A DNA stretch of 63,924 nt, counting the filler, from Asterionella formosa (taxonomy: Eukaryota), in assembly GCA_002256025.1 (NCBI GenBank). It is 13 parts of 13 records of this genome, joined end to end, with 100 filler letters (N's around TTAATTAATTAA, not from the genome) between each part and the next. Parts side by side here need not be neighbours in the genome. Positions count along the whole stretch, not along the records: positions 54,191 to 59,010 come from NKIB01013342.1; 12 more parts are not named here. One strand, given 5' to 3'. The notes beneath the pieces are model-generated. The model made no database searches. It was given only the letters and a program-made list of their open reading frames with translations, and was not told the origin of the DNA. A program made the position numbers and the translations under genes. Within the stretch, counting starts at the first letter, position 1; each line of letters starts with the position of its first letter. Of the stretch, positions 4,838 to 61,257 are shown one piece after another.

Positions 4838-4937
4838 NNNNNNNNNNNNNNNNNNNNNNNNNNNNNNNNNNNNNNNNNNNNTTAATTAATTAANNNNNNN
4901 NNNNNNNNNNNNNNNNNNNNNNNNNNNNNNNNNNNNN
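4838..4937. other. Artificial contig spacer (N-run, TTAATTAATTAA, N-run). Also at ~9773, 14704, 19616, 24545, 29474, 34402, 39329, 44252, 49178, 54091 and 59011
   Basis: Identical ~100-nt linker with stops in all six frames, recurring every ~4.9 kb. Confidence 0.99.
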
Positions 4938-9772: not shown

Positions 9773-9872
9773 NNNNNNNNNNNNNNNNNNNNNNNNNNNN
9801 NNNNNNNNNNNNNNNNTTAATTAATTAANNNNNNNNNNNNNNNNNNNNNNNNNNNNNNNNNNNNNNNNNNNN

Positions 9873-39428: not shown

Positions 39429-39860
39429 CCAATCCCAGATTGATGCATCCCAATAATGTGTCATTTGATTTTTCTGATCCCTGCAAGGCTCCACAACCGT
39501 CTGATGTCCGTTCAGAATTACACACCGGGAGTTGGTGGATTGACGCTCAAAACTGTCTGTGAATTCAACCCAATGATTTTCTCGTCCCTCTAATGTTTTT
39601 CATTGATAGAACACATACTGTAGAAAATTCTAAATTCACCATGGAGCCAGTTTTGTTTTCTCTTGGGATTTTCCGTACAACTGTAAGGAACAAAGTCATT
39701 GCTTGGCGCCCCCTTGGTCTAATACCAAAACTTGATGGTCAGAGTCTTGCATTGAACAAAAATATGACTGCCGACGATAAGTGCAAGGATTATCACACAA
39801 TTTTGGCAATTATATTGTCGGGAGTTCAAGAGACTCAGAAATCTGGTGGCTTCATTCAGC
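39429..39860 (+). pseudogene. Plavaka-type transposase fragment
   Basis: ELHTGSWW, VPLMFFIDRTH, EPVLFSLGIF, AWRPLGLIP and YHTILAIIL motifs, with an internal stop. Confidence 0.75.
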
Positions 39861-40320
39861 TGGCAGCTGAATGATATCAAGATAGAAAAGTAGTTTGTAA
39901 GTGCATACAGAGAAAGGCAAAGAAATAAACAATACGAACATACGAAGAAAAGCGCTGACATTTAAGGTTTGAAAAAGACACCCATTCTTGGTTGAGTCGT
40001 GAATTTTCTTTCACATGAGACTATAGATTGGAAAGGAGGTTGAGCTGAGCGAGAGAAGGAGAATCTCTGAAAGAAGAAAAATCACATCAAACTTACCATG
40101 AAGAGGCCATCATAGTCATTGTGAGTTTTCGTTTCAGCATGATTTTACAATTATGTGGTGCAAGATTGACGATAATAACATATTTGTAATAAATTAATAT
40201 GGGTGCGGTCAATTGTGCTCATTTCATGATACAATGTACCAGATTATCGGTACCAGGTACTGTAAAATGAACACACTAAAATCCTGGCATGTTCTGCAGT
40301 GTTGTACGAGTATGCAATAA

Positions 40321-44351: not shown

Positions 44352-46271
44352 CAAATGCTCAGCTTGTCATTGAGCTGAAGCATGTTATGATGCTTGAAAG
44401 AAAGGTAAAAACTCAACGTGATGAGTTTCTATTCAAGATATTTTCAATGAATAGTGAATCAGCAGAAGCAAAAGGTGGCTTGCCATGAAGGCAAAGAAGC
44501 AATGGAGGAGAAAGATGCTGTGATTGGGAAACTGGCAGCCAAAAAGGCCAAAGAAGGTATAGTGGAGTTTGTCAATTCTGCTGAAGTATATGTTTCAACT
44601 TCTCCATCAGCATCTACTGATGATGATGAATCGATTCTAGAAACTGAACAACTAGAGTTTTAAAATAATTTGGTTACTAATTACTCTGCTAGTATCATTT
44701 CATTGTTTCCGATTTACATTATAAGAGTCAATAGATTGTTTAATTTAATAAAAATAAAATATTGTATTTTATATATCCTCATTTCGAGTCCACAAGTGCT
44801 CAATCAAATCATTTCGCAATTGATAGTGCTCACCTTCATTCATGTAGCTCATTCGATTTGCTTTGAAATCTAGGAAAATATGCACATTGTCAACCAAAAA
44901 GCCATCCTGAATATTATCAAATAAGTATTCATTTGTGTCTTTTGTATCCCACTCATCTTCTATAATCATGTTGCGTAGTATGATACATGCAATGATGACA
45001 TGATTCATTGCAACCACTCACCAAAGTTTGCACTGAAGCGCCAGGATCCTTCACCTTGCTTGTAGCACACCAAATGCTCGCTCTACGTCCTTGCGTTGGA
45101 CCTCTTGTACCATTGTCAAATGTGCACGCTTTGCACCTTGTGGTTGCGAAATTGTTTTGACAAAAATGTGCCAATCTGGTTAGATGCCATAAACCAAATA
45201 GTGACCTAGATTCTGTTCTTTGTTGTTGATTGTGAAGTTGACGGCAGGAGTCCTTCCAGCTGTTAAATCCCGGAATAACAGAGAACAATCCAAAATATTG
45301 AGATTGTTGTTAGCACCTGGCATTCCAAACCATGTGTGCCAGAACCAAAGTCTACAATTAGCCAACTGCAGCTTCCAAAGCAACAGTAGCCACTCCATCT
45401 TTTCCTTGAAACGCTCCTCTGTGTGCCTTGGGAAAATTCTTCCATTCCCACTGCATCACATCCAATGAACCAAGAAGTCCCAGCCAACCCTTTGCTTCAT
45501 GTAGACGTAAACCATTTCCATGTCATCCTTTGTAGGAGCTCGCAAATATTCTGTTCCATACCTGCTGATTATTGAGTTACAAAACACTTTTAGGTTGTGG
45601 AGTGGAGTTGATTCAGCCATTCTTGTGAGGTCATCCAGCTGATCTGCTGAAGTTCCATAAGCCAACATTCGAAGTGCTGAGGTTAACTTTTGATGCGGCG
45701 AAAAACTGACCAGACCCAAGGCATCTTTCTTCTGTAGTATGGATTCGCCTCAACCAAATCTTCAAGAATCTTTTCAAATAAGGAGCGATGCATCCGGAAG
45801 CGCCTCCTGAAATGTGCAGGAGAGTAGATTGGATTCTCGCCGAAATAGTCGTCCTTCAACAGCTTATCGTACTCTGCACAAAAGGGATTCACATTAGTAG
45901 CCTTGTCAACCTTGGAACCTCCTCCCCTATTTTGTATTTCTTTGCATCATTTTCATTTCTTTGTTGATGATGCATCTTGCGGAAGTGGAAGAGGCAATCA
46001 TCATCAGATGAGTCCATATCATTGCTCATAGTTTCATTTTGCGTTTATATATCTATGTATCATGTACCGCTATATCAACGATTCACATATAAAGACAATA
46101 TACCGGTAACTCTATTTCTATTTGCTAAAATTATTTTAGGATTTGGTCGATCCGGTGGAAAAAACTATGAAAATTTCGACTATTGATACAAAATTTCTCG
46201 ACCAAGTGACGTGTTTTGATATTTTCAACTGCGTTTGGCTTTGGTATTTGGTCGATGCGGTTGAGATGCTC
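44352..46271 (-). mobile_element. Degenerate PIF/Harbinger element: transposase pseudogene 46029-44769 and possible end of a convergent second ORF (<44352-44663, + strand)
   Basis: DDYFGENPIY..HFRRRFRM, LTSALRMLAYG, WFWHTWFGMPGANNNLNILD and ACIILRNMIIEDE motifs with frameshifts. Terminus GTTGAGATGCTC|TAA at ~46271. Confidence 0.88.
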
Positions 46272-53719: not shown

Positions 53720-54333
53720 GATGCTAATGGTTGTGTTTGTTGTAGACGAGCCCTGATGATGTTCACGTTGGCAATAAGGGTTGCTTCCCTGGGACGGGAG
53801 TCTGTAGTTTTAGAATGATTGATTGTATGGAAGGGGAGAACCAAAAGGGATGGCACTGTAATCGATTAATGATGAGAGCTGGTGCAAGAAATCATGCTCA
53901 TTTCTTTTTGTCGAAATGGAACCGTCATCACACGATCTGATCGGCGCCGCCTTCCCTGCATATATTAACATTCCGCCGTATACTAACCGGTACATATACC
54001 GGTATGAATTGCAAATTAGAACATTATTTATTTAGTCATTCTCGGAGTGAGTACGTAGTTGCCTGTTGTTTCTTAGAGGTACCAGGTACCNNNNNNNNNN
54101 NNNNNNNNNNNNNNNNNNNNNNNNNNNNNNNNNNTTAATTAATTAANNNNNNNNNNNNNNNNNNNNNNNNNNNNNNNNNNNNNNNNNNNNATTATAAACG
54201 CTAAGTAAATTTTATAGTACCGGTACGCTATTGTTAAAGAACTCGACAATTGTGGAGGTTGCGAAGTCGCACTTAGACCTTCTTGTTGTCTGCCTCACGA
54301 CCCAGAACCCAAGGGACTACATAAACAAAGCAG

Positions 54334-54397
54334 TTGGAGAATTCGGGAATCGAACCCGCCACCTCGGAAGGTGAGCTAACCAACTAAGCCACTCACC
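54334..54397 (-). other. tRNA-like pseudogene or SINE head lacking an anticodon arm
   Basis: A box TGGCTTAGTTGG and B box GGTTCGATTCC, ending CTCCA. Too short for a full cloverleaf. Confidence 0.45.
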
Positions 54398-54747
54398 GAG
54401 TAAATACACAAAGTACATACCGGAATGTTTTGGTTCATTTCTTGCGAGCCAGCATCATAATACGTGGCGTACGATTGTATACCCAAAGCGTTTCGAGGCT
54501 TCTCAACATTCTAAGACCTATTGCCCTACGACATACATTACATTCAGTGACATTAGTTTGTGCACAACTGCTCAAATCATCGTTTTGCGCGTCAGGATCC
54601 TGCTGCCTTACCTGGCGTACGATTGTGCACCCTGTCGAGTGTTCTCATCGCACATTTGTTGGAATCATATGTAAGTACAGAATGTGTAATACTTATCATA
54701 TTTATACAGAAATTTTATATAACTTTGTATTGTGAGTCAGCATCCCT

Positions 54748-54996
54748 AACAAGGGGCAGAAGGGAATGCTGGTAGGGCAAACCTACAGTCTCACAGTACT
54801 AACGTAGTAATAGGTATAGTTTCACAGTAGCAAGATCATGTTGCGACCGGGTATTGAAACAAGGGGCAGAAGGGAATGCTGGTAGGACAAACCTACAGTC
54901 TCACAGTACTAACGTATCAATAGGTATAGTTTCACAGTACCGGTAGCCACATCATGTTCCGACCAGGTATTGAAACAAGGGGATGACGGGAATGCA
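54748..54996. repeat. Tandem ~110-bp repeat (2 copies plus a partial third)
   Basis: AACAAGGGGCAGAAGGGAATGCTGGTAGG...GGTATTGA is repeated. Confidence 0.9.
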
Positions 54997-55119
54997 GAAA
55001 TTTTATTTACAGATGTTGGTGCCCAGTAATCTAATTTAGTTCATGCTCATACTATTTTTCTTTTAGTTTCTAAATAGATAATTATATGGTTTAGGGATGA
55101 TCATTTACATTACGATGTG

Positions 55120-55812
55120 ATGGCCAAACAATCTTGTTTTGTTTCCATAAAATATCAAAATGTTAAATGAGTTTACTCTTGAAGAACTGTAATTAATAAA
55201 TGCCGGACCACTCGAACTGTATCAACATTCTTTGTTATCACTTCAATATTGAAGTTGTCATTTGGATATGGCACTAAATTGCGAATTGCATCAGGAATTT
55301 GTCCATCACCATCATTTCCAGGACCCATTCCAGAGGTATCAATTGTTCGCAAACTGGCTAATCCAAGTACCACCGGTCTTGCAACTGCATTTAGCCTTTG
55401 AATAGCAAAAGGTGCTTTAGCTCCATTTAATTGGCCTAATGGTCCTTTCTAGTCACTTAAAAACCATTTTGCCATTGCAGGTCTAAGCCATCAATATCAA
55501 GTAACATGTTATGAAATGCGCAACATGTTAGCCAGACTTTGTCAGGTTCTGTTACTCCATGTATTCGGATATCAAGTAACATGTTATGAAATGCGCAACA
55601 TGTTAGCCAGACTTTGTCAGGTTCTGTTACTCCATGTATTCGGATGCCTGAATTTAAAATCCGCCAGCATCCCTTGAGTATTCCAAAGGTACATTCCACA
55701 TCTTTTCTAAGTGACTCCAGCCATTCAGACCATGTAAGTTCTTGTTCAGTTTCTGGGTTTTTGTTTGGAGGCACTGTTCTAGACCATTTTAGATATCCAT
55801 TGTCAACTTTCA
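55120..55812 (-). pseudogene. Harbinger-type transposase C-terminal remnant with a 75-bp tandem duplication
   Basis: VDNGYLKW, WLESLRKDVECTFGILKG.WRIL and TCCAFHNMLL (duplicated) motifs. Confidence 0.85.
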
Positions 55813-55841
55813 AAAAGCATCCACTATACTTTATGGATACA

Positions 55842-56041
55842 CCTAACCCTAACCCTAACCCTATAGGTATGACGACTAGAGGCGTTGTCCCTTTGCCCTA
55901 ACACTAACCCTCCATCTATAGGATTTAGTCATACTGTGTGCTACAGTTACATGACCAGCCCTAGAAGGGCTGGATGCTCTATAGGGATGACGCCTAGAGG
56001 CGTCATACCCATTTCCCGTTTACCCTAAATCAAAAAAAAAA
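55842..56041. repeat. Telomere-like (CCCTAA)n repeats with palindromic hairpins
   Basis: CCTAACCCTAACCCTAACCCTA, CCAGCCCTAGAAGGGCTGG and GGGATGACGCCTAGAGGCGTCATACCC. Confidence 0.75.
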
Positions 56042-56052
56042 TGTGTTACCAT

Positions 56053-59010
56053 TTATTTGAGATCTGGCCATTGCAAATCAGTGAGACAGGGTATGCTGCT
56101 TTTGCATACTGCAACAACTGTGATTTTCCCCTGGGTTTGAGGAATATTGGATTTCACAGAATCAGAAACGCTTTGTCTGGGACTTAAATAAATCAAAAAA
56201 ATCTTTGTAAACATTTTGTGCCATCCAGCCGCATTACACATTTTTGTAAACTTTTTCAACACATTGTGGTGATCGGAAGTATGTACCTGGACACCATAGA
56301 CACTTTTGCCACACTTCCAGATCAGATCAATTGCAGGAAAATTGCAGTTTTTGGGTACATACATTCCATCCTCATCCATGATTTTTGGCAACACATTTGA
56401 GGGAAAGGTCCCCTTGGAGGGAAAGAGTTCAATGAGATTGCATTCCTTCAAAGAAGGTAATTCCTTCAAAGAAGGTAATCCCTTCAAAGTAACATCAGCC
56501 TTGAGTGAACACCGGTTGATCACAATGAGCTCGAAAATCCGACCACGAGCATCATTTGTCAATTTAGGGTTGGCACAGACACACAAAAGTTCTTTCTCAT
56601 CGTCATTGACAGAAGCCATTATAGCTTTCCAAAAATAACGTCGATAGGCTATTATCACCACAGGAAACAAAGGCTCATAGTTATCAGCCTGTACCACCTC
56701 ATCAGGAAGTGAACCTTCGCTGTCATATTCTACTGCATCCTTTTTGGGAATTGAATCTTTCCTGTCATGTTCTATTGCATCCTTAACAGGAATTGAATAT
56801 TTCCTGTCATATTCCATTTGATCTCCTGTAGTTGACAAAACACAAGCAACAGCAGATTTGGTGATGCGATCAAATTTCGTTTTTGTTTTCGATTCTTTCA
56901 AATGGTCAAGAGAACTTAGAATTATGCGCAATTCAGCATCTTCATACTTAGGGATAGAAAAGTTAGAAGAAATTAATTTCATCACCTGCCAGGGCACCCC
57001 ACCAGTCACCTCCAAGATCCTTGCGCTGTCATTTCGTTTATCCAAAACCTTAAATGCGAGCGTTAATTCTTTCCAATCCATTTGGCGAGGGTGATTGTAT
57101 TCATCAAACCCTAGATGTCTTTCCTTGTATGCAATCTCGTTGTTTGCTGAAGCTGAAACGATGGAGACAATTTGGCCTCCCTGCATTATTTTATCGATGG
57201 CAATAAAAGGAAAGCGAAGCGTACCAAGATCTCTGGCTTCCTTTTGCCCTGGCCGAGCAAACAATCTGTTGATCTGATCGAAAACCAGGACCCATTTCTT
57301 CCCCATACTTCGAAGAATCAAGTCAATGGCATTGACAAAAGTGTTGAGGTGTTTCGATTGCGAAACCAAACCTGAGCTGCTCGACCACGAGAGAGCCGAT
57401 AATGACGTACCAAGTGAACTGCAGATCGCTGTGTACAAATCGTCAACGTCTTCCCATTTGTCACAGTCTGGAATGAAAGTTACGAGGTACTTGCAGCTAC
57501 TGCCATATTGCAGTTTCCGAACCAAGTTGACAAGAGAGTGCGACTTGCCGATTCCATGCGGTCCCTTAATCATGATTCCAGTCGGACCACCTTTTTCGAA
57601 GACATCTTCAACCGCTTTCGTCATCTCCTTCACAATTTCAGGGCGATATAAGATTCCCCGACTCTTACAATCATTAAACCGCACTTTTTGGAGACCATTC
57701 ATCCAATAACTATCTTGGGGGGAAAAGACGGAAACAATTTGATCAGAAGAAGGTAAAGGATCATTGGAAGGAAGCTGGTTTCGATCAATGGTATAGATAT
57801 GCGATGTCTCTTCAAAACTTCGCTCTTTCTGATCCTTCTCCAAGCGCGTGAAATAATCGTTGAGCTTCCCACTTAGTAGCCCTAGTAAGACGGCAACCTC
57901 CTGATCATAGTTTAGAGTCCGGGAGGGTACCACGTACTTATCATTTAGTTTCTGGCGTTTCGTCGCTTCTTGGTCTTTTCAACAGTAGCGAGGTATTTGT
58001 ATGGGATAGATGATACGAAATGATACGTGAGTATAAGGAGCTGTGAACTACAATACAATAGAAGGTATTCCATGAGATCAAAATGCGTACCAATATCAGG
58101 TGCAACAATCACGAACGCATTCTTGCTGCTAGCTCCCCAATTCAGATGAACAACCAGACCAGGATCCAAGGTTGGATCATTAGTTCCCTCAGGAACCGGC
58201 ACTTGAGTTCCAGGTGGATACACACGGAGCTGCGCTGAGGAAACACCTTGAAGATTGTCACCACATTTAATCTTCACGGCATCCATCAAGTCAGCAATGT
58301 CATCATTCTTCTTCAAAGTAACTTTAAAGGGCGTTTGTGCTGTGTGTCCTAGAAACAACTGGAACCAAACATTCATTGTTATCGACATCATGGTTGAGGG
58401 AACCATAAAGGAGGCAACGTCCTGCTCATCATTTAGTTTCTGGCGTTTCGTCGCTCCTTGGTCTTTTCAACAGTAGCGAGGTATTTGTATGGGATAGATG
58501 ATACGAAATGATACGTGAGTATTAGGAGCTGTGAACAACAATACAATAGAAGGTATTCCATGAGATCAAAATACGTACCAATATCAGGTGCAACAATCAC
58601 GAACGCATTCTTGCTGCTAGCTCCCCAATTCAGATGAACAACCAGACCAGGATCCAAGGTTGGATCATTAGTTCCCTCAGGAACCGGCACTTGAGTTCCA
58701 GGTGGATACACACGGAGCTGCGCTGAGGAAACACCTTGAAGATTGTCACCACATTTAATCTTCACGGCATCCATCAAGTCAGCAATGTCATCATTCTTCT
58801 TCAAAGTAACTTTAAAGGGCGTTTGTGCTGTGTGTCCTAGAAACAACTGGAACCAAACATTCATTGTTATCGACATCATGGTTGAGGGAACCATAAAGGA
58901 GGCAACGTCCTGCTCATCATTTAGTTTCTGGCGTTTCGTCGCTCCTTGGTCTTTTCAACAGTAGCGAGGTATTTGTATGGGATAGATGATACGAAATGAT
59001 ACGTGAGTAT
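56053..59010 (-). CDS. Crinkler/CR-type protein: tandem ubiquitin-like headers, P-loop NTPase and restriction-endonuclease-like domain. Introns 58090-57975, 58578-58463 and >59010-58951
   Basis: Header VWFQL..FKV..IADLMDAVK..L..V..AQLRVY, Walker A GPHGIGKS, Walker B VLVFDQ, and YVPKNCNFPAIDLI..GVQV. Manual splicing keeps one frame throughout. Confidence 0.8.
57940..59010. repeat. 488-bp near-identical tandem repeat (2 full copies plus a partial), each holding a header exon and an intron
   Basis: ORFs 57945-58406 and 58433-58894 differ by only 3 residues. Confidence 0.95.
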
Positions 59011-60499
59011 NNNNNNNNNNNNNNNNNNNNNNNNNNNNNNNNNNNNNNNNNNNNTTAATTAATTAANNNNNNNNNNNNNNNNNNNNNNNNNNNNNNNNNN
59101 NNNNNNNNNNAGAACGAAAACCAGTTGCAATGGAACGCTCGCATGTGAGGTCTGGAGAAGTTGCACAGCTTGATCTCGGTGGCCTTGTCATCTTGGTCAG
59201 AGTCGACCTTGCATTTGTAGGTTTGGTACTTCTTCAACTCCATAGGCTGTAACGTGCAATCAAGGTTTCGGAAACAGGGAAACGATGTGAGTTGAATTAT
59301 CACTAGAAACACATCAAACCCCTTACCACAATTTAAATTGCCTGATGTAGGATCAGTAGCTCCAGAGCTCTCCAGTCAATGACTTACAGCTCCAGTATCA
59401 ACTTCAGACATTTTAATAGTGTTTATTAGTGTCTCCAACAAAGAAATGTGAGACTATAACATCCAACCTTTATTATTAGACGCTATTCACCACTTCGGGG
59501 CAAATTTCTCCTGGATTCTTGATTGTTTCTGGATGCCGGTAATTTCATGCATAAACATATACCGGTTGGAATATATAAATATGTATTTTATGCTTATGTA
59601 TAGATGTGAAAACAGCAGTCATTGTGTGTTTGTGTTCACACAACAATTCATTCCAGGTGCGTGTGAGCGACCTTCCCAACTTCCCAGATCCTTCCGAAAA
59701 CGCACAAGGGTAATAATTTATGTAGGCACTTTGTAGCACGTACCGGTGTACATAAATTTGATTCTTATACATCTGCCTATTGCCGTCAAGAATGTGACGA
59801 AAGGCGCGGCATCATACTCCGGCACATACCGGTATCCTTGTAGGGGTCAGATTAGTTACCGTGAGCGTGTCCTGGAGTCTACATACCGGTAAATAAACTA
59901 ATGGATATACCGGTATGTTGAAAATCCATACCGTTAAACGTAGCACTGCGTAGTGAGCATCGGTATCATTAACTTCGGGAACCAAGAAAAGCACTGCCGG
60001 TATGTGTGAGAATCGCGAAGGTACATACCGGTACATATGAAGTACGTCTAAACTGTACTTAGCCGCTACCGGCAGTTCCCTAATACTGCAGATACCGTAG
60101 AATACTCGACCCATTCGATTGTCATGTTACTTAAACGAACAATACCGTATACTGTACTTGGTAATCCTCGATCACATAAGAACGCATACCGGTATAACGG
60201 TAGGTAATACGTCTTATGTGTACGTCGTCCTCGTATGTCTACATATTTTTTGGGGCTGTTCCAAGGCGCCAGGAGAAAACCCATCTGGCCGCTTTGCCTG
60301 CCTGCCTCATCGATGTTGGGTGCTTGGGGGGCATCATGGGAGAATTCGAACTCCTCACACCAGTGCACATAATCAGGAATGGTTTTTAAGCACCCCATCA
60401 TCCATTTATGTCGCTCCTGGTGTCCAGTGAGGCACCCCACCCCTTCACCTGGGCGAGTTAGTGTGAGACTGTAAGGAATGTTCGTCGCCACGTGCGTCG

Positions 60500-61030
60500 A
60501 AATTAGTTACAATGAGGAAGTCAACCTTGCTCGTGACATCAGAAATCGCTGGTTGTTAGACAACGGTGCTACCATTCACATCTGCACGGACGTGCGCATG
60601 ATGGAAGACAAGAAACAAGTGAGTGAAACGGTCGTGGTAGGGAATGGAACTGAGATAGTATCAACTGTCTCTGGTACCGTGACCCTGACGACTATGGACG
60701 AAGGAAAACGCTTGAAACTCAGCGATGTGCTTTATGCACCGGAGTTCAAGTAGAACATCATCAGTGTCTCTAGAATGATCGACAAGGGTAATCAAGTGAT
60801 CTTCGAGGACGATAGGATGACGATACAAAACAAGAGCGGCTTTCTGACCTGCAAAAGAGACAAAACGCGAAAACTCAGAGTAATGTATCATGTCGAAGGT
60901 AATCCGATCATCAAGCAAACGGTGATGGAAGTCGAGCAACTACAAGAGAACACTACACAACAATTGATCGACGAATACAACGAAAACGATTGGACGAAAG
61001 TTGAAGCAAAGACGGGAAGGAGTACGAGAA
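60500..61030 (+). pseudogene. Copia protease-region fragment
   Basis: WLLDNGATIHIC, VVVGNG and LSDVLYAPEFK*NIISVSRMIDKG. Confidence 0.8.
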
Positions 61031-61257
61031 CTTTCAACATATCTGTTGGTGATGAAGGGGATGCAATAACACTTTCTCGTACAAACAAGGTGACATAGGT
61101 ATCTATTGTCACCTCGTACTCAGGCTACAACACATTCTTGTACAGACAACAAGGTGACGACATTTGTATTGTCTATTGGTGATGGAGGGACGCAAAAACA
61201 CGTTTTTCTCGTACAAACAAGGTGACATTGATATCTATTGTCACCTTGTACTTAGGT

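Follow-up and report, generated by a model that had tools for sequence, protein, structure and literature searches.

A probable Crinkler-type NTPase-nuclease gene with tandem, in-frame header exons in an Asterionella formosa assembly

Proteins of the Crinkler/RHS (CR) class join an N-terminal header to an NTPase and a nuclease-like domain, and a locus in the assembly of the diatom Asterionella formosa raises the question of whether such headers can be carried as tandem exons that are spliced in frame onto a single enzyme. The window, by which we mean the whole 63,924-base stretch of DNA that was analysed, is made up of 13 unlinked pieces of about 4.8 kb each; the gene in question lies on the minus strand of the piece at positions 54191 to 59010. 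The reading that we favour, with a probability of roughly 0.6, is that the gene is expressed, belongs to a large and fast-recombining family of CR-type genes, and comes from a eukaryotic alga living in fresh water, probably a diatom.

Tandem Repeats Finder reported a repeat at 57940-59010 with a period of 488, 2.2 copies and 99% matches. Read on the minus strand, the array consists of two full 488-bp units (59010-58035) and a 95-nt start of a third, upstream of a 626-codon frame (56053-57933); the third copy matches over the 95 nt with one difference and then diverges. Each unit comprises a 372-nt exon, in phase 1 at both ends, and a 116-nt GT..AG intron, and the description of the array in the earlier note as 488-bp units of header exon plus 116-nt intron was borne out by both the repeat search and the minus-strand reading. 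In the direction of the gene, the contig opens with the 3' part (60 nt) of an intron cut off by the contig end (58951-59010), which is followed by a distal internal header exon (58579-58950; 372 nt, phase 1-1), a 116-nt GT..AG intron (58463-58578; GTACGT...TTGAAAAG), and a proximal internal header exon (58091-58462; 372 nt) identical in sequence to the distal one. The last intron (57975-58090; 116 nt) differs from the distal copy at 3 bases and leads to the last coding exon (56053-57974; 1,922 nt), which encodes a linker (DQEATKRQKLNDKY...), the NTPase, a set of 14-aa repeats and the nuclease-like domain, and ends in the stop codon at 56053-56055. The array reaches the contig end at 59010 with two complete header exons present, and because the intron there is partial, at least one further exon is expected upstream. 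Both 372-nt exons read the linker DQGATKRQKLNDEQDVASF, then MVPSTMMSIT, then the header core MNVWFQLFLG...AFVIVAPDI (the ATG of the distal core is at 58864). The units at 59010-58523 and 58522-58035 differ at 3 of 488 bases, all of them intronic. In the spliced frame the sequence ...VIVAPDI-D-QGATKRQKLNDEQDVASFMVPST... is open, the header-to-header junction peptide would read ...VIVAPDIDQGATK...MVPST..., and the last acceptor opens in frame into DQEATKRQKLNDKYVVPSRT... and then into the 626-codon frame. The GTG at 57933, from which a '626-aa ORF' (open reading frame) had been called, was rejected as the start of the gene, as it is an artefact of the ORF caller inside the last exon.

Intron-less relatives and an RNA joint together confirm that the in-frame splice is real. 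The proteins P0145 and P0249, whose headers are 70-79% identical to that of the window, are encoded by single open frames in which the header (...PDIDQGATKRQK...) runs straight into the NTPase and the intron is absent; their junction reads ...IQPDIDQGATKRQKQNDEQ..., with GPHGIGKSHSLVNL further on, which is the predicted exon-exon junction. A single contig from the poly-A metatranscriptome run X7 joins 58579|57974, with CT..AC ends on the plus strand, that is, GT..AG on the strand of the gene. Because the two header exons are identical, this joint is equivalent to 58091|57974, the removal of the last intron. The in-frame splice of the last unit into the 626-codon frame, as first proposed, is thus borne out by the open frame, the intron-less relatives and the RNA contig, the last of which also provides the RNA junction support that the earlier note had named as a check, with 24 letters on the shorter side of the joint. 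The intron bin 57980-58083 showed low depth in both RNA runs (77 and 13.6) and high depth in both DNA runs; since depth over contig runs is unsuited to ranking the parts of a gene, the case for the splice rests on the joint instead. Another X7 RNA contig joins 58423 to 57892 (linker 57892-57935), which is equivalent to a loss of 42 nt (14 codons) after KLND and probably represents an expressed paralogue or allele with a shorter linker. The stretch was present in 20 of the 24 listed runs, from 11 studies, with at least half of its words in 17 runs and with RNA as the source in 8; these runs are freshwater or lake metagenomes and an 'algae metagenome'.

The tandem header architecture itself is real and is not an assembly loop. 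Joint Genome Institute metagenome contigs were scanned with the header alignment, which gave 11 loci, and header and ORF were then placed on these by tblastn. Two headers are present in L001 (391-699 and 873-1190), three in L002 (1-276, 450-773 and 946-1164), and two, followed by the NTPase exon, in L004. L005 and L007 have one header and then the NTPase exon, and in L003, L010 and L011 the header lies at the contig end. L006 (2545-2832), L008 (1108-1395) and L009 (1889-2125) carry the header of a different gene, behind NTPase-nuclease fragments. The stacked headers of the related loci are divergent (70-89% to the window header); the copies in L001, L002 and L004 are therefore not collapsed loops, and the tandem in-frame design is older and shared. 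The linker-to-header junction of the window recurs in L001 behind a different header, with 1 mismatch in 142 nt, and occurs without mismatch in an X1 DNA contig and an X17 RNA contig. Every complete internal exon has a length divisible by 3 and stays open when spliced (372 nt for each of the two in the window, 375 nt in L001, 381 nt in L002 and 375 nt in L004), and their introns measure 115, 116 and 125 nt. Since each internal header exon also keeps an acceptor and a donor, the number of headers in a transcript can be one, two or more without loss of frame.

The internal headers are distinguished from those that stand first. The six first-type headers (L001, L003, L005, L007, L010 and L011) read ...ACC ATC AGT TAG AAA ACA ATG, with an in-frame stop two codons before the ATG. 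All six internal-type rows read ...ATC ATG TCG ACA ACA AT(G/A) behind the linker, 2 of them having ATA in place of the header's own ATG. Lacking the TAG and, in these 2 cases, their own ATG, the internal headers look built for read-through from upstream. Upstream of first-type headers (L003 at ~2090-2150, L005, L007, L010 and L011) runs an extended CT-rich tract whose end, CAG|GTACCC, resembles the 3' splice site of an intron in the 5' untranslated region; it is at this same base that the internal units (...TTAATG|GTACCC) have their breakpoint. Further tandem copies of the NTPase-nuclease part were seen at L005 3124-4457, L006 521-2028, L008 3-591, L009 404-1550 and L011 4-2067; several of the tandem copies in related contigs are frame-split or truncated, which suggests that these contigs hold arrays with decayed NTPase-nuclease copies.

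The header resembles the Crinkler type, though below the Pfam threshold. The window header matched Pfam PF20147 (Crinkler) at E 0.0058 with 17.8 bits, below the gathering cut-off of 24.6. Our 42-row header alignment comprises the window header, 38 of 48 homologue hits and 3 of 6 longer-protein hits; 12 of the 42 aligned members match PF20147 at E<=0.01, the best at 2.9e-5, and no competing Pfam family was found on the header part of the homologues. Atlas look-alikes of the header fall into PF20147-bearing clusters from Mucoromycota and Oomycota in 29 of 30 cases; the top three score 0.92-0.94, and the best, at 0.94, shares 213 of 256 features. The header profile had no match among PDB sequences. 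The header exon ends in AFVIVAPDI, and F88 and I90 are invariant. Protein P0251 begins with a header of this type, 78% identical across the portion that is present, and continues with repeats and then a HECT domain (E 5.6e-88), and L006, L008 and L009 carry the P0251 header type (70-78% identical) without an intron after the header. Because it is also found on a HECT ligase, the header is a movable N-terminal module that is not fixed to the nuclease gene.

The 626-residue frame had 94 relatives at E<=1e-3 in a word-indexed search and 394 cluster representatives in an exhaustive search; the alignment used for modelling took 66 of the 94 word-indexed hits and 4 from the exhaustive search. The AlphaFold2 model has a mean predicted local distance difference test score (pLDDT) of 86.4 and a predicted template modelling score of 0.85. 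On this model the middle of the protein is a STAND/AAA+-like NTPase, which would supply the P-loop NTPase that CR proteins carry in their C-terminal part. Residues ~35-430 matched ORC/Cdc6, CED-4 and archaeal PF01637 ATPases by Foldseek (E ~3e-6, within a range of ~1e-5 to 1e-6), and VIA matches included mS29 (Z 12.7, root-mean-square deviation (rmsd) 4.0, 252 aligned), PAB2304 (Z 11.6), Avs3 (Z 11.6) and plant NLRs. AAA_16 matches 51 of the 71 family members, all Pfam matches being below gathering scores. The family profile gave only weak P-loop matches to mS29 among solved structures. A search of solved structures with the single sequence returned only a match to SRP54, which is at chance level and was rejected. 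The predicted domain, a P-loop NTPase with a helical/winged-helix extension, spans 56779-57657 (ORF residues ~93-385); the matches of the Cdc6/ORC and PF01637 type, proteins that carry a winged helix at their C-terminus, reach as far as model residues 383-433. Walker A (GPHGIGKS, residues 124-131, at 57541-57564) has G124, G129 and S131 invariant in the 71-sequence alignment and P125, G127 and K130 kept in at least 90%. The Walker B-like motif is VLVFDQ (residues 215-220, at 57274-57291), with D219 and Q220 kept in at least 90% of the 71 sequences. Walker B usually has D-D/E, and the D-Q found here would point more to a nucleotide-bound switch than to a motor.

Between the NTPase and the nuclease-like domain lies a low-confidence (disordered) linker with a 42-nt, 2.8-copy in-frame repeat (56703-56818; 14-aa units). 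In DNA contigs from runs X1 and X4, 6 other letters stand in place of 90 nt of this repeat, a net loss of two units, and the number of 14-aa repeats therefore varies between copies or strains. A second in-frame repeat (18 nt, 2.7 copies, LKGLPSLKELPSLKE) was seen at 56442-56489, in a low-confidence loop of the nuclease-like domain.

The C-terminus (residues 414-626, at 56056-56694) was refolded alone because the NTPase had filled the structural match list of the whole protein, and the resulting model has a pLDDT of 87.2. The model points to a restriction-endonuclease-like fold. The VIA matches were the R.BspD6I small subunit (2p14_A; Z 7.5, rmsd 4.0, 125 aligned), N.BspD6I (7.0), Card1 (6.9), McrC (6.8), LlaBIII (6.4), and BstEII and FokI (6.1), Z values under 8 being ones that can reflect a common arrangement; of the 17 rows at Z>=5.2, 13 have titles that name restriction enzymes or DNA nucleases. 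The candidate active-site span (56281-56532) contains E468 (56530-56532), D536 (56326-56328) and Q549-V-H551 (56281-56289), which in the model lie in a helix, at the start of a strand and in the next strand, respectively, at the PD-(D/E)xK positions (alpha1, beta2 and beta3). D536 is invariant, and E468, Q549 and H551 are kept in at least 90% of the 71 sequences. Atlas look-alikes of the domain were oomycete (0.96) and euglenozoan clusters, one of them with PF07999 RHSP on 14% of its members. The protein would be predicted to have nuclease activity. The header, NTPase and nuclease-like architecture of the CR class, which had been claimed on sequence features, is supported by the sub-threshold PF20147 match, the STAND/AAA+ fold and the restriction-endonuclease-like fold (Z up to 7.5), the predicted structures having given a STAND/AAA+-like NTPase and a restriction-endonuclease-like C-terminus.

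We compared introns and exons in the 8 units, out of 17 header hits in the window and the related loci, that have both splice sites and a near-complete header. Mean pairwise identity was 97.6% for the introns versus 90.7% for the header exons, and the intron was more similar than the exon in 27 of 28 pairs, the exception being the pair of units in the window itself. The header exons, compared over 36 pairs of 9 units, had a mean nonsynonymous divergence (dN) of 0.122 and a mean synonymous divergence (dS) of 0.149, with a ratio of 0.82, and synonymous divergence in the exons was about 6 times the divergence of the introns. The three intron differences in the window are variants common to other paralogues. 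Since near-identical introns are a property of the whole family, they carry no dating signal for a recent duplication; the near identity of the copies that the earlier note had reported stands, but the very recent amplification that it drew from this fits no more than the pair of identical units on this contig. The header alignment has a mosaic look, distinct alternative segments being recombined from copy to copy, and the window header combines the N-half of the second header of L001 with the C-half of the first. The over-conservation of the intron suggests gene conversion or crossing-over centred on the intron and the first ~50 nt of the next exon. No Rfam match was found on the contig at E<=1, and the intron folded no better than shuffled sequences (z +1.44).

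We favour the following mechanism. The protein is modular, with one or more Crinkler-type headers, a basic linker after each, a STAND/AAA+-like switch and a domain of restriction-endonuclease fold. The header module is a symmetric phase-1 exon that ends directly behind FVIVAP and is followed by the ~116-nt intron, and the proposed recombination site is this intron with the first ~50 nt of the next exon, nearly identical across paralogues. Unequal exchange at the intron and linker would stack header exons in tandem, and the same exchange would place the header on other C-termini, such as that of a HECT ligase; a variable header copy number at the locus is plausible. The NTPase may act as a nucleotide-dependent switch or oligomeriser that controls the DNA-cutting domain, the basic linker TKRQK may be a nuclear signal resembling a nuclear localization signal, and the headers may be ubiquitin-like handles for trafficking or regulation. 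Multi-header proteins would be translated, and the gene family may have a role in conflict, directed against other cells, parasites (or viruses), or the cell's own selfish DNA. We suggest, tentatively and at less than even odds, that the HVLVxxP junction of oomycetes became a homogenised intron and linker here, and that recombination and splicing at this site vary the number and kind of headers and move the header between enzymes (NTPase-nuclease and HECT ligase). If true, a phototroph would possess a conflict gene family whose diversity is generated by way of an intron.

Several observations weigh against the reading of the locus as an expressed, multi-header gene of the CR kind in an alga. 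The Pfam match of the header falls under the gathering score; no Foldseek match for the nuclease-like domain was found at E<=0.001 (best Can2, at 0.017); the third active-site position is His, not Lys; and HMMER found no PF07999 RHSP match in the window protein at E<=1 or in the 71 family members at E<=0.01. The X7 RNA joint was aligned at a likeness threshold of 92%, and both this value and the length of the shorter side are flagged as weak. Two headers in one mRNA are weakly seen, in one X17 back-joint (58461|58091, depth 5) and one 202-nt X17 contig that covers 58752-58951 free of mismatches and ends at the acceptor, leaving two letters unaligned; no reads or contigs spanning two header exons were found here, where the run contigs are at most 202 nt long. 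It is unlikely, in our estimate, that the two identical units are an assembly artefact, the assembler having looped twice via allelic or paralogous intron variants, with fewer real internal headers. The array does abut the contig end, its exons are 100% identical, the 3 bases at which its units differ are intron variants found in other paralogues as well, and the graph could have been traversed twice at this point; the runs also contain a great many copies of the family (in X4, 4966 contigs were aligned, 2374 of them fitting two places). However, such a loop needs a real linker-to-header junction, which is seen in L001 with a divergent header, in X1 DNA and in X17 RNA, and the divergent tandem headers of L001, L002 and L004 show that the architecture exists. 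It is doubtful, too, that the array is real but a neutral by-product of unequal crossing-over, with one header used, either the first via its ATG or the last via internal initiation or exon skipping. The dN/dS near 0.8 is compatible with weak constraint on the headers, single-header genes exist (L005 and L007; P0145 and P0249 begin MKVWF), and two headers were found in none of the 6 longer proteins with this header, a weak count drawn from 78 candidates only. Against neutral stacking, all five complete internal exons are open and have retained both splice sites and a length divisible by 3 despite indels, and the internal units lack the stop preceding 'first' headers, two of them being without their own ATG.

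A selfish RHS-like or transposon-linked multicopy element, spread and kept by its own NTPase-nuclease and not an effector or defence gene, seems to us quite unlikely. It would account for the many copies, with fragments among them in arrays (L005, L006, L008, L009 and L011), for the transposase remnant and repeats beside the gene and for the RHSP-bearing look-alike cluster, and prokaryotic NTPase and restriction-endonuclease modules are linked to transposable elements according to a passage of a review (PMC5289972). On the other hand, the gene structure is spliced and of the host type, the header is also present in a HECT ligase gene, and no terminal repeats or target-site duplications were seen, though no search was aimed at them. 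The contig could also come from another lake eukaryote, such as a chytrid or an oomycete that parasitises algae of these waters, where genes of the Crinkler type would be expected; we consider this improbable. The contig has no taxonomic marker, the header's look-alikes in the Atlas come from clusters of Mucoromycota and Oomycota, and the sequence was found in mixed lake metagenomes. Yet the only named relative is a protein of the diatom Attheya sp. (35% identity), relatives of ~40% identity sit on Mb-scale eukaryotic contigs, depth is very high in the 'algae metagenome' run and its poly-A RNA, and oomycete Crinkler (CRN) genes are not known to have introns of this sort. From this one named relative and the habitat, a diatom host is plausible.

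Turning to the surroundings of the gene, the pieces of the window are separated by N44-TTAATTAATTAA-N44 spacers (24 N runs and 12 linkers in all, at 4838-4937, 9773-9872, ... 59011-59110), and since the pieces are unlinked, neighbourhood arguments across spacers are void. The gene-bearing contig (54191-59010) has such spacers on both sides, and the DNA past 59110 belongs to another contig. By tblastn, the remaining 12 pieces hold no further copy of the header or the ORF. When other ORFs of the window were scanned against Pfam, first 17 and later 88, only a sulfotransferase, cytochrome b5, an AlgH-like domain and transposon domains were detected, with no lineage marker on the other pieces. The protein clusters examined for 10 relatives and for 10 other ORFs of the window, 3 of these ORFs being represented among the clusters, carried no organism names. 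On the gene's own contig, a remnant of a PIF/Harbinger-type DDE transposase (DDE_Tnp_4, E 6.9e-13) lies on the minus strand at 55460-55897 and contains a perfect tandem duplication of 75 bp x 2 (25 codons, in frame) at 55494-55645. Directly beyond the stop codon of the gene, at 55847-56050, short palindromes (GACGCCTCTAGGCGTC-like) are interleaved with TTAGGG-like repeats; run contigs turn into CCCTAA repeats at 56004, and depth at 55900-56003 is several-fold above that of the gene. This region could be a high-copy repeat or a subtelomere-like setting. Transposon remnants elsewhere in the window are a copia-type Pol beta-barrel (60475-61095, E 2.2e-13), a Harbinger Plant_tran (45183-45455, E 6.9e-17) and a Plavaka match below cut-off (39563-39871, E 1e-4).

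CR proteins are known chiefly from pathogens of plants and animals, where they serve as effectors, and the gene bears on two questions about them, how their modules are shuffled and what the header does. If a free-living alga of fresh waters transcribes a large CR family, this would indicate a function apart from infection. An intron placed exactly at the junction of header and enzyme, more conserved than the exons that flank it and bordered by in-frame header exons that can be stacked, offers a concrete picture of how modular genes recombine, and the header on a HECT ubiquitin ligase bears on the question of whether it is a delivery device or a general ubiquitin-like handle.

The closest comparison is with the CRN effectors of oomycetes. 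The C-terminus of CR proteins is most often a P-loop NTPase with a domain of restriction-endonuclease fold, as stated in the review passages (PMC5289972), and the gene shares with oomycete CRN and CR proteins this predicted combination, a modular reshuffling among paralogues, and an N-terminal header hit, below gathering score, by the Pfam Crinkler model. The same passages report Zhang et al. (2016) as proposing that the CR NTPase is a nucleotide-dependent switch or oligomeriser controlling the DNA-cutting domain. Here, as in the descriptions of oomycete CRN proteins, the module boundary directly follows a hydrophobic V-x-V-x-x-P-like motif (FVIVAP here, HVLVVVP in oomycetes); AFVIVAPDI resembles HVLVxxP, described as the CRN recombination site, in character and position, but it is not the same motif. 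Unlike CRN proteins in the strict sense, as defined in the review passages (PMC5289972), the header has no literal LxLFLAK, and SSAQLRVYPPG stands at that place. It is also unlike the oomycete genes in that the boundary is an intron, the headers are stacked as tandem cassette exons, the host is probably a free-living freshwater alga and there is no sign here of secretion or delivery. As regards diatoms, Stam et al. (2013) applied oomycete models to Phaeodactylum and Thalassiosira, report that these lack CRN genes, and use the two as CRN-negative controls (PMC3607596). We found no account of CR genes in diatoms in the titles and abstracts of the literature, which did not cover Zhang et al. (2016), where some may be listed.

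Kinetoplastid RHS proteins (PF07999) are similar in that the C-terminus is a look-alike by language-model features (score 0.93) and in forming a multicopy family with fragments; they differ in the N-terminus, and the PF07999 model itself did not match by HMMER in the window protein or the 71 family members. The CRN-like families of Rhizophagus (Mucoromycota) and Batrachochytrium supply header look-alike clusters with PF20147 on 46-79% of members and are likewise of high copy, although the similarity is distant and tandem headers were not encountered in abstracts and passages on them. As far as could be checked, tandem cassette header exons with a homogenised intron are undescribed. The STAND/AAA+ switch ATPases (ORC/Cdc6, CED-4/Apaf-1, PF01637, mS29/DAP3 and Avs) share the predicted fold of residues ~35-430 (Z 10-12.7) and an intact Walker A; in contrast to them, the protein has D-Q for D-D/E in Walker B and combines the ATPase, in a single chain, with a nuclease-like domain and a Crinkler header. 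Polyubiquitin genes offer a parallel for in-frame, head-to-tail repeats that each encode a small domain, with a beta-grasp fold presumed for the header, but the present gene has introns between the units, no Gly-Gly processing site, a basic linker and an enzyme at the end. Taken with these likenesses and differences, the gene probably works like proteins of the CR class and is probably a distant member of it.

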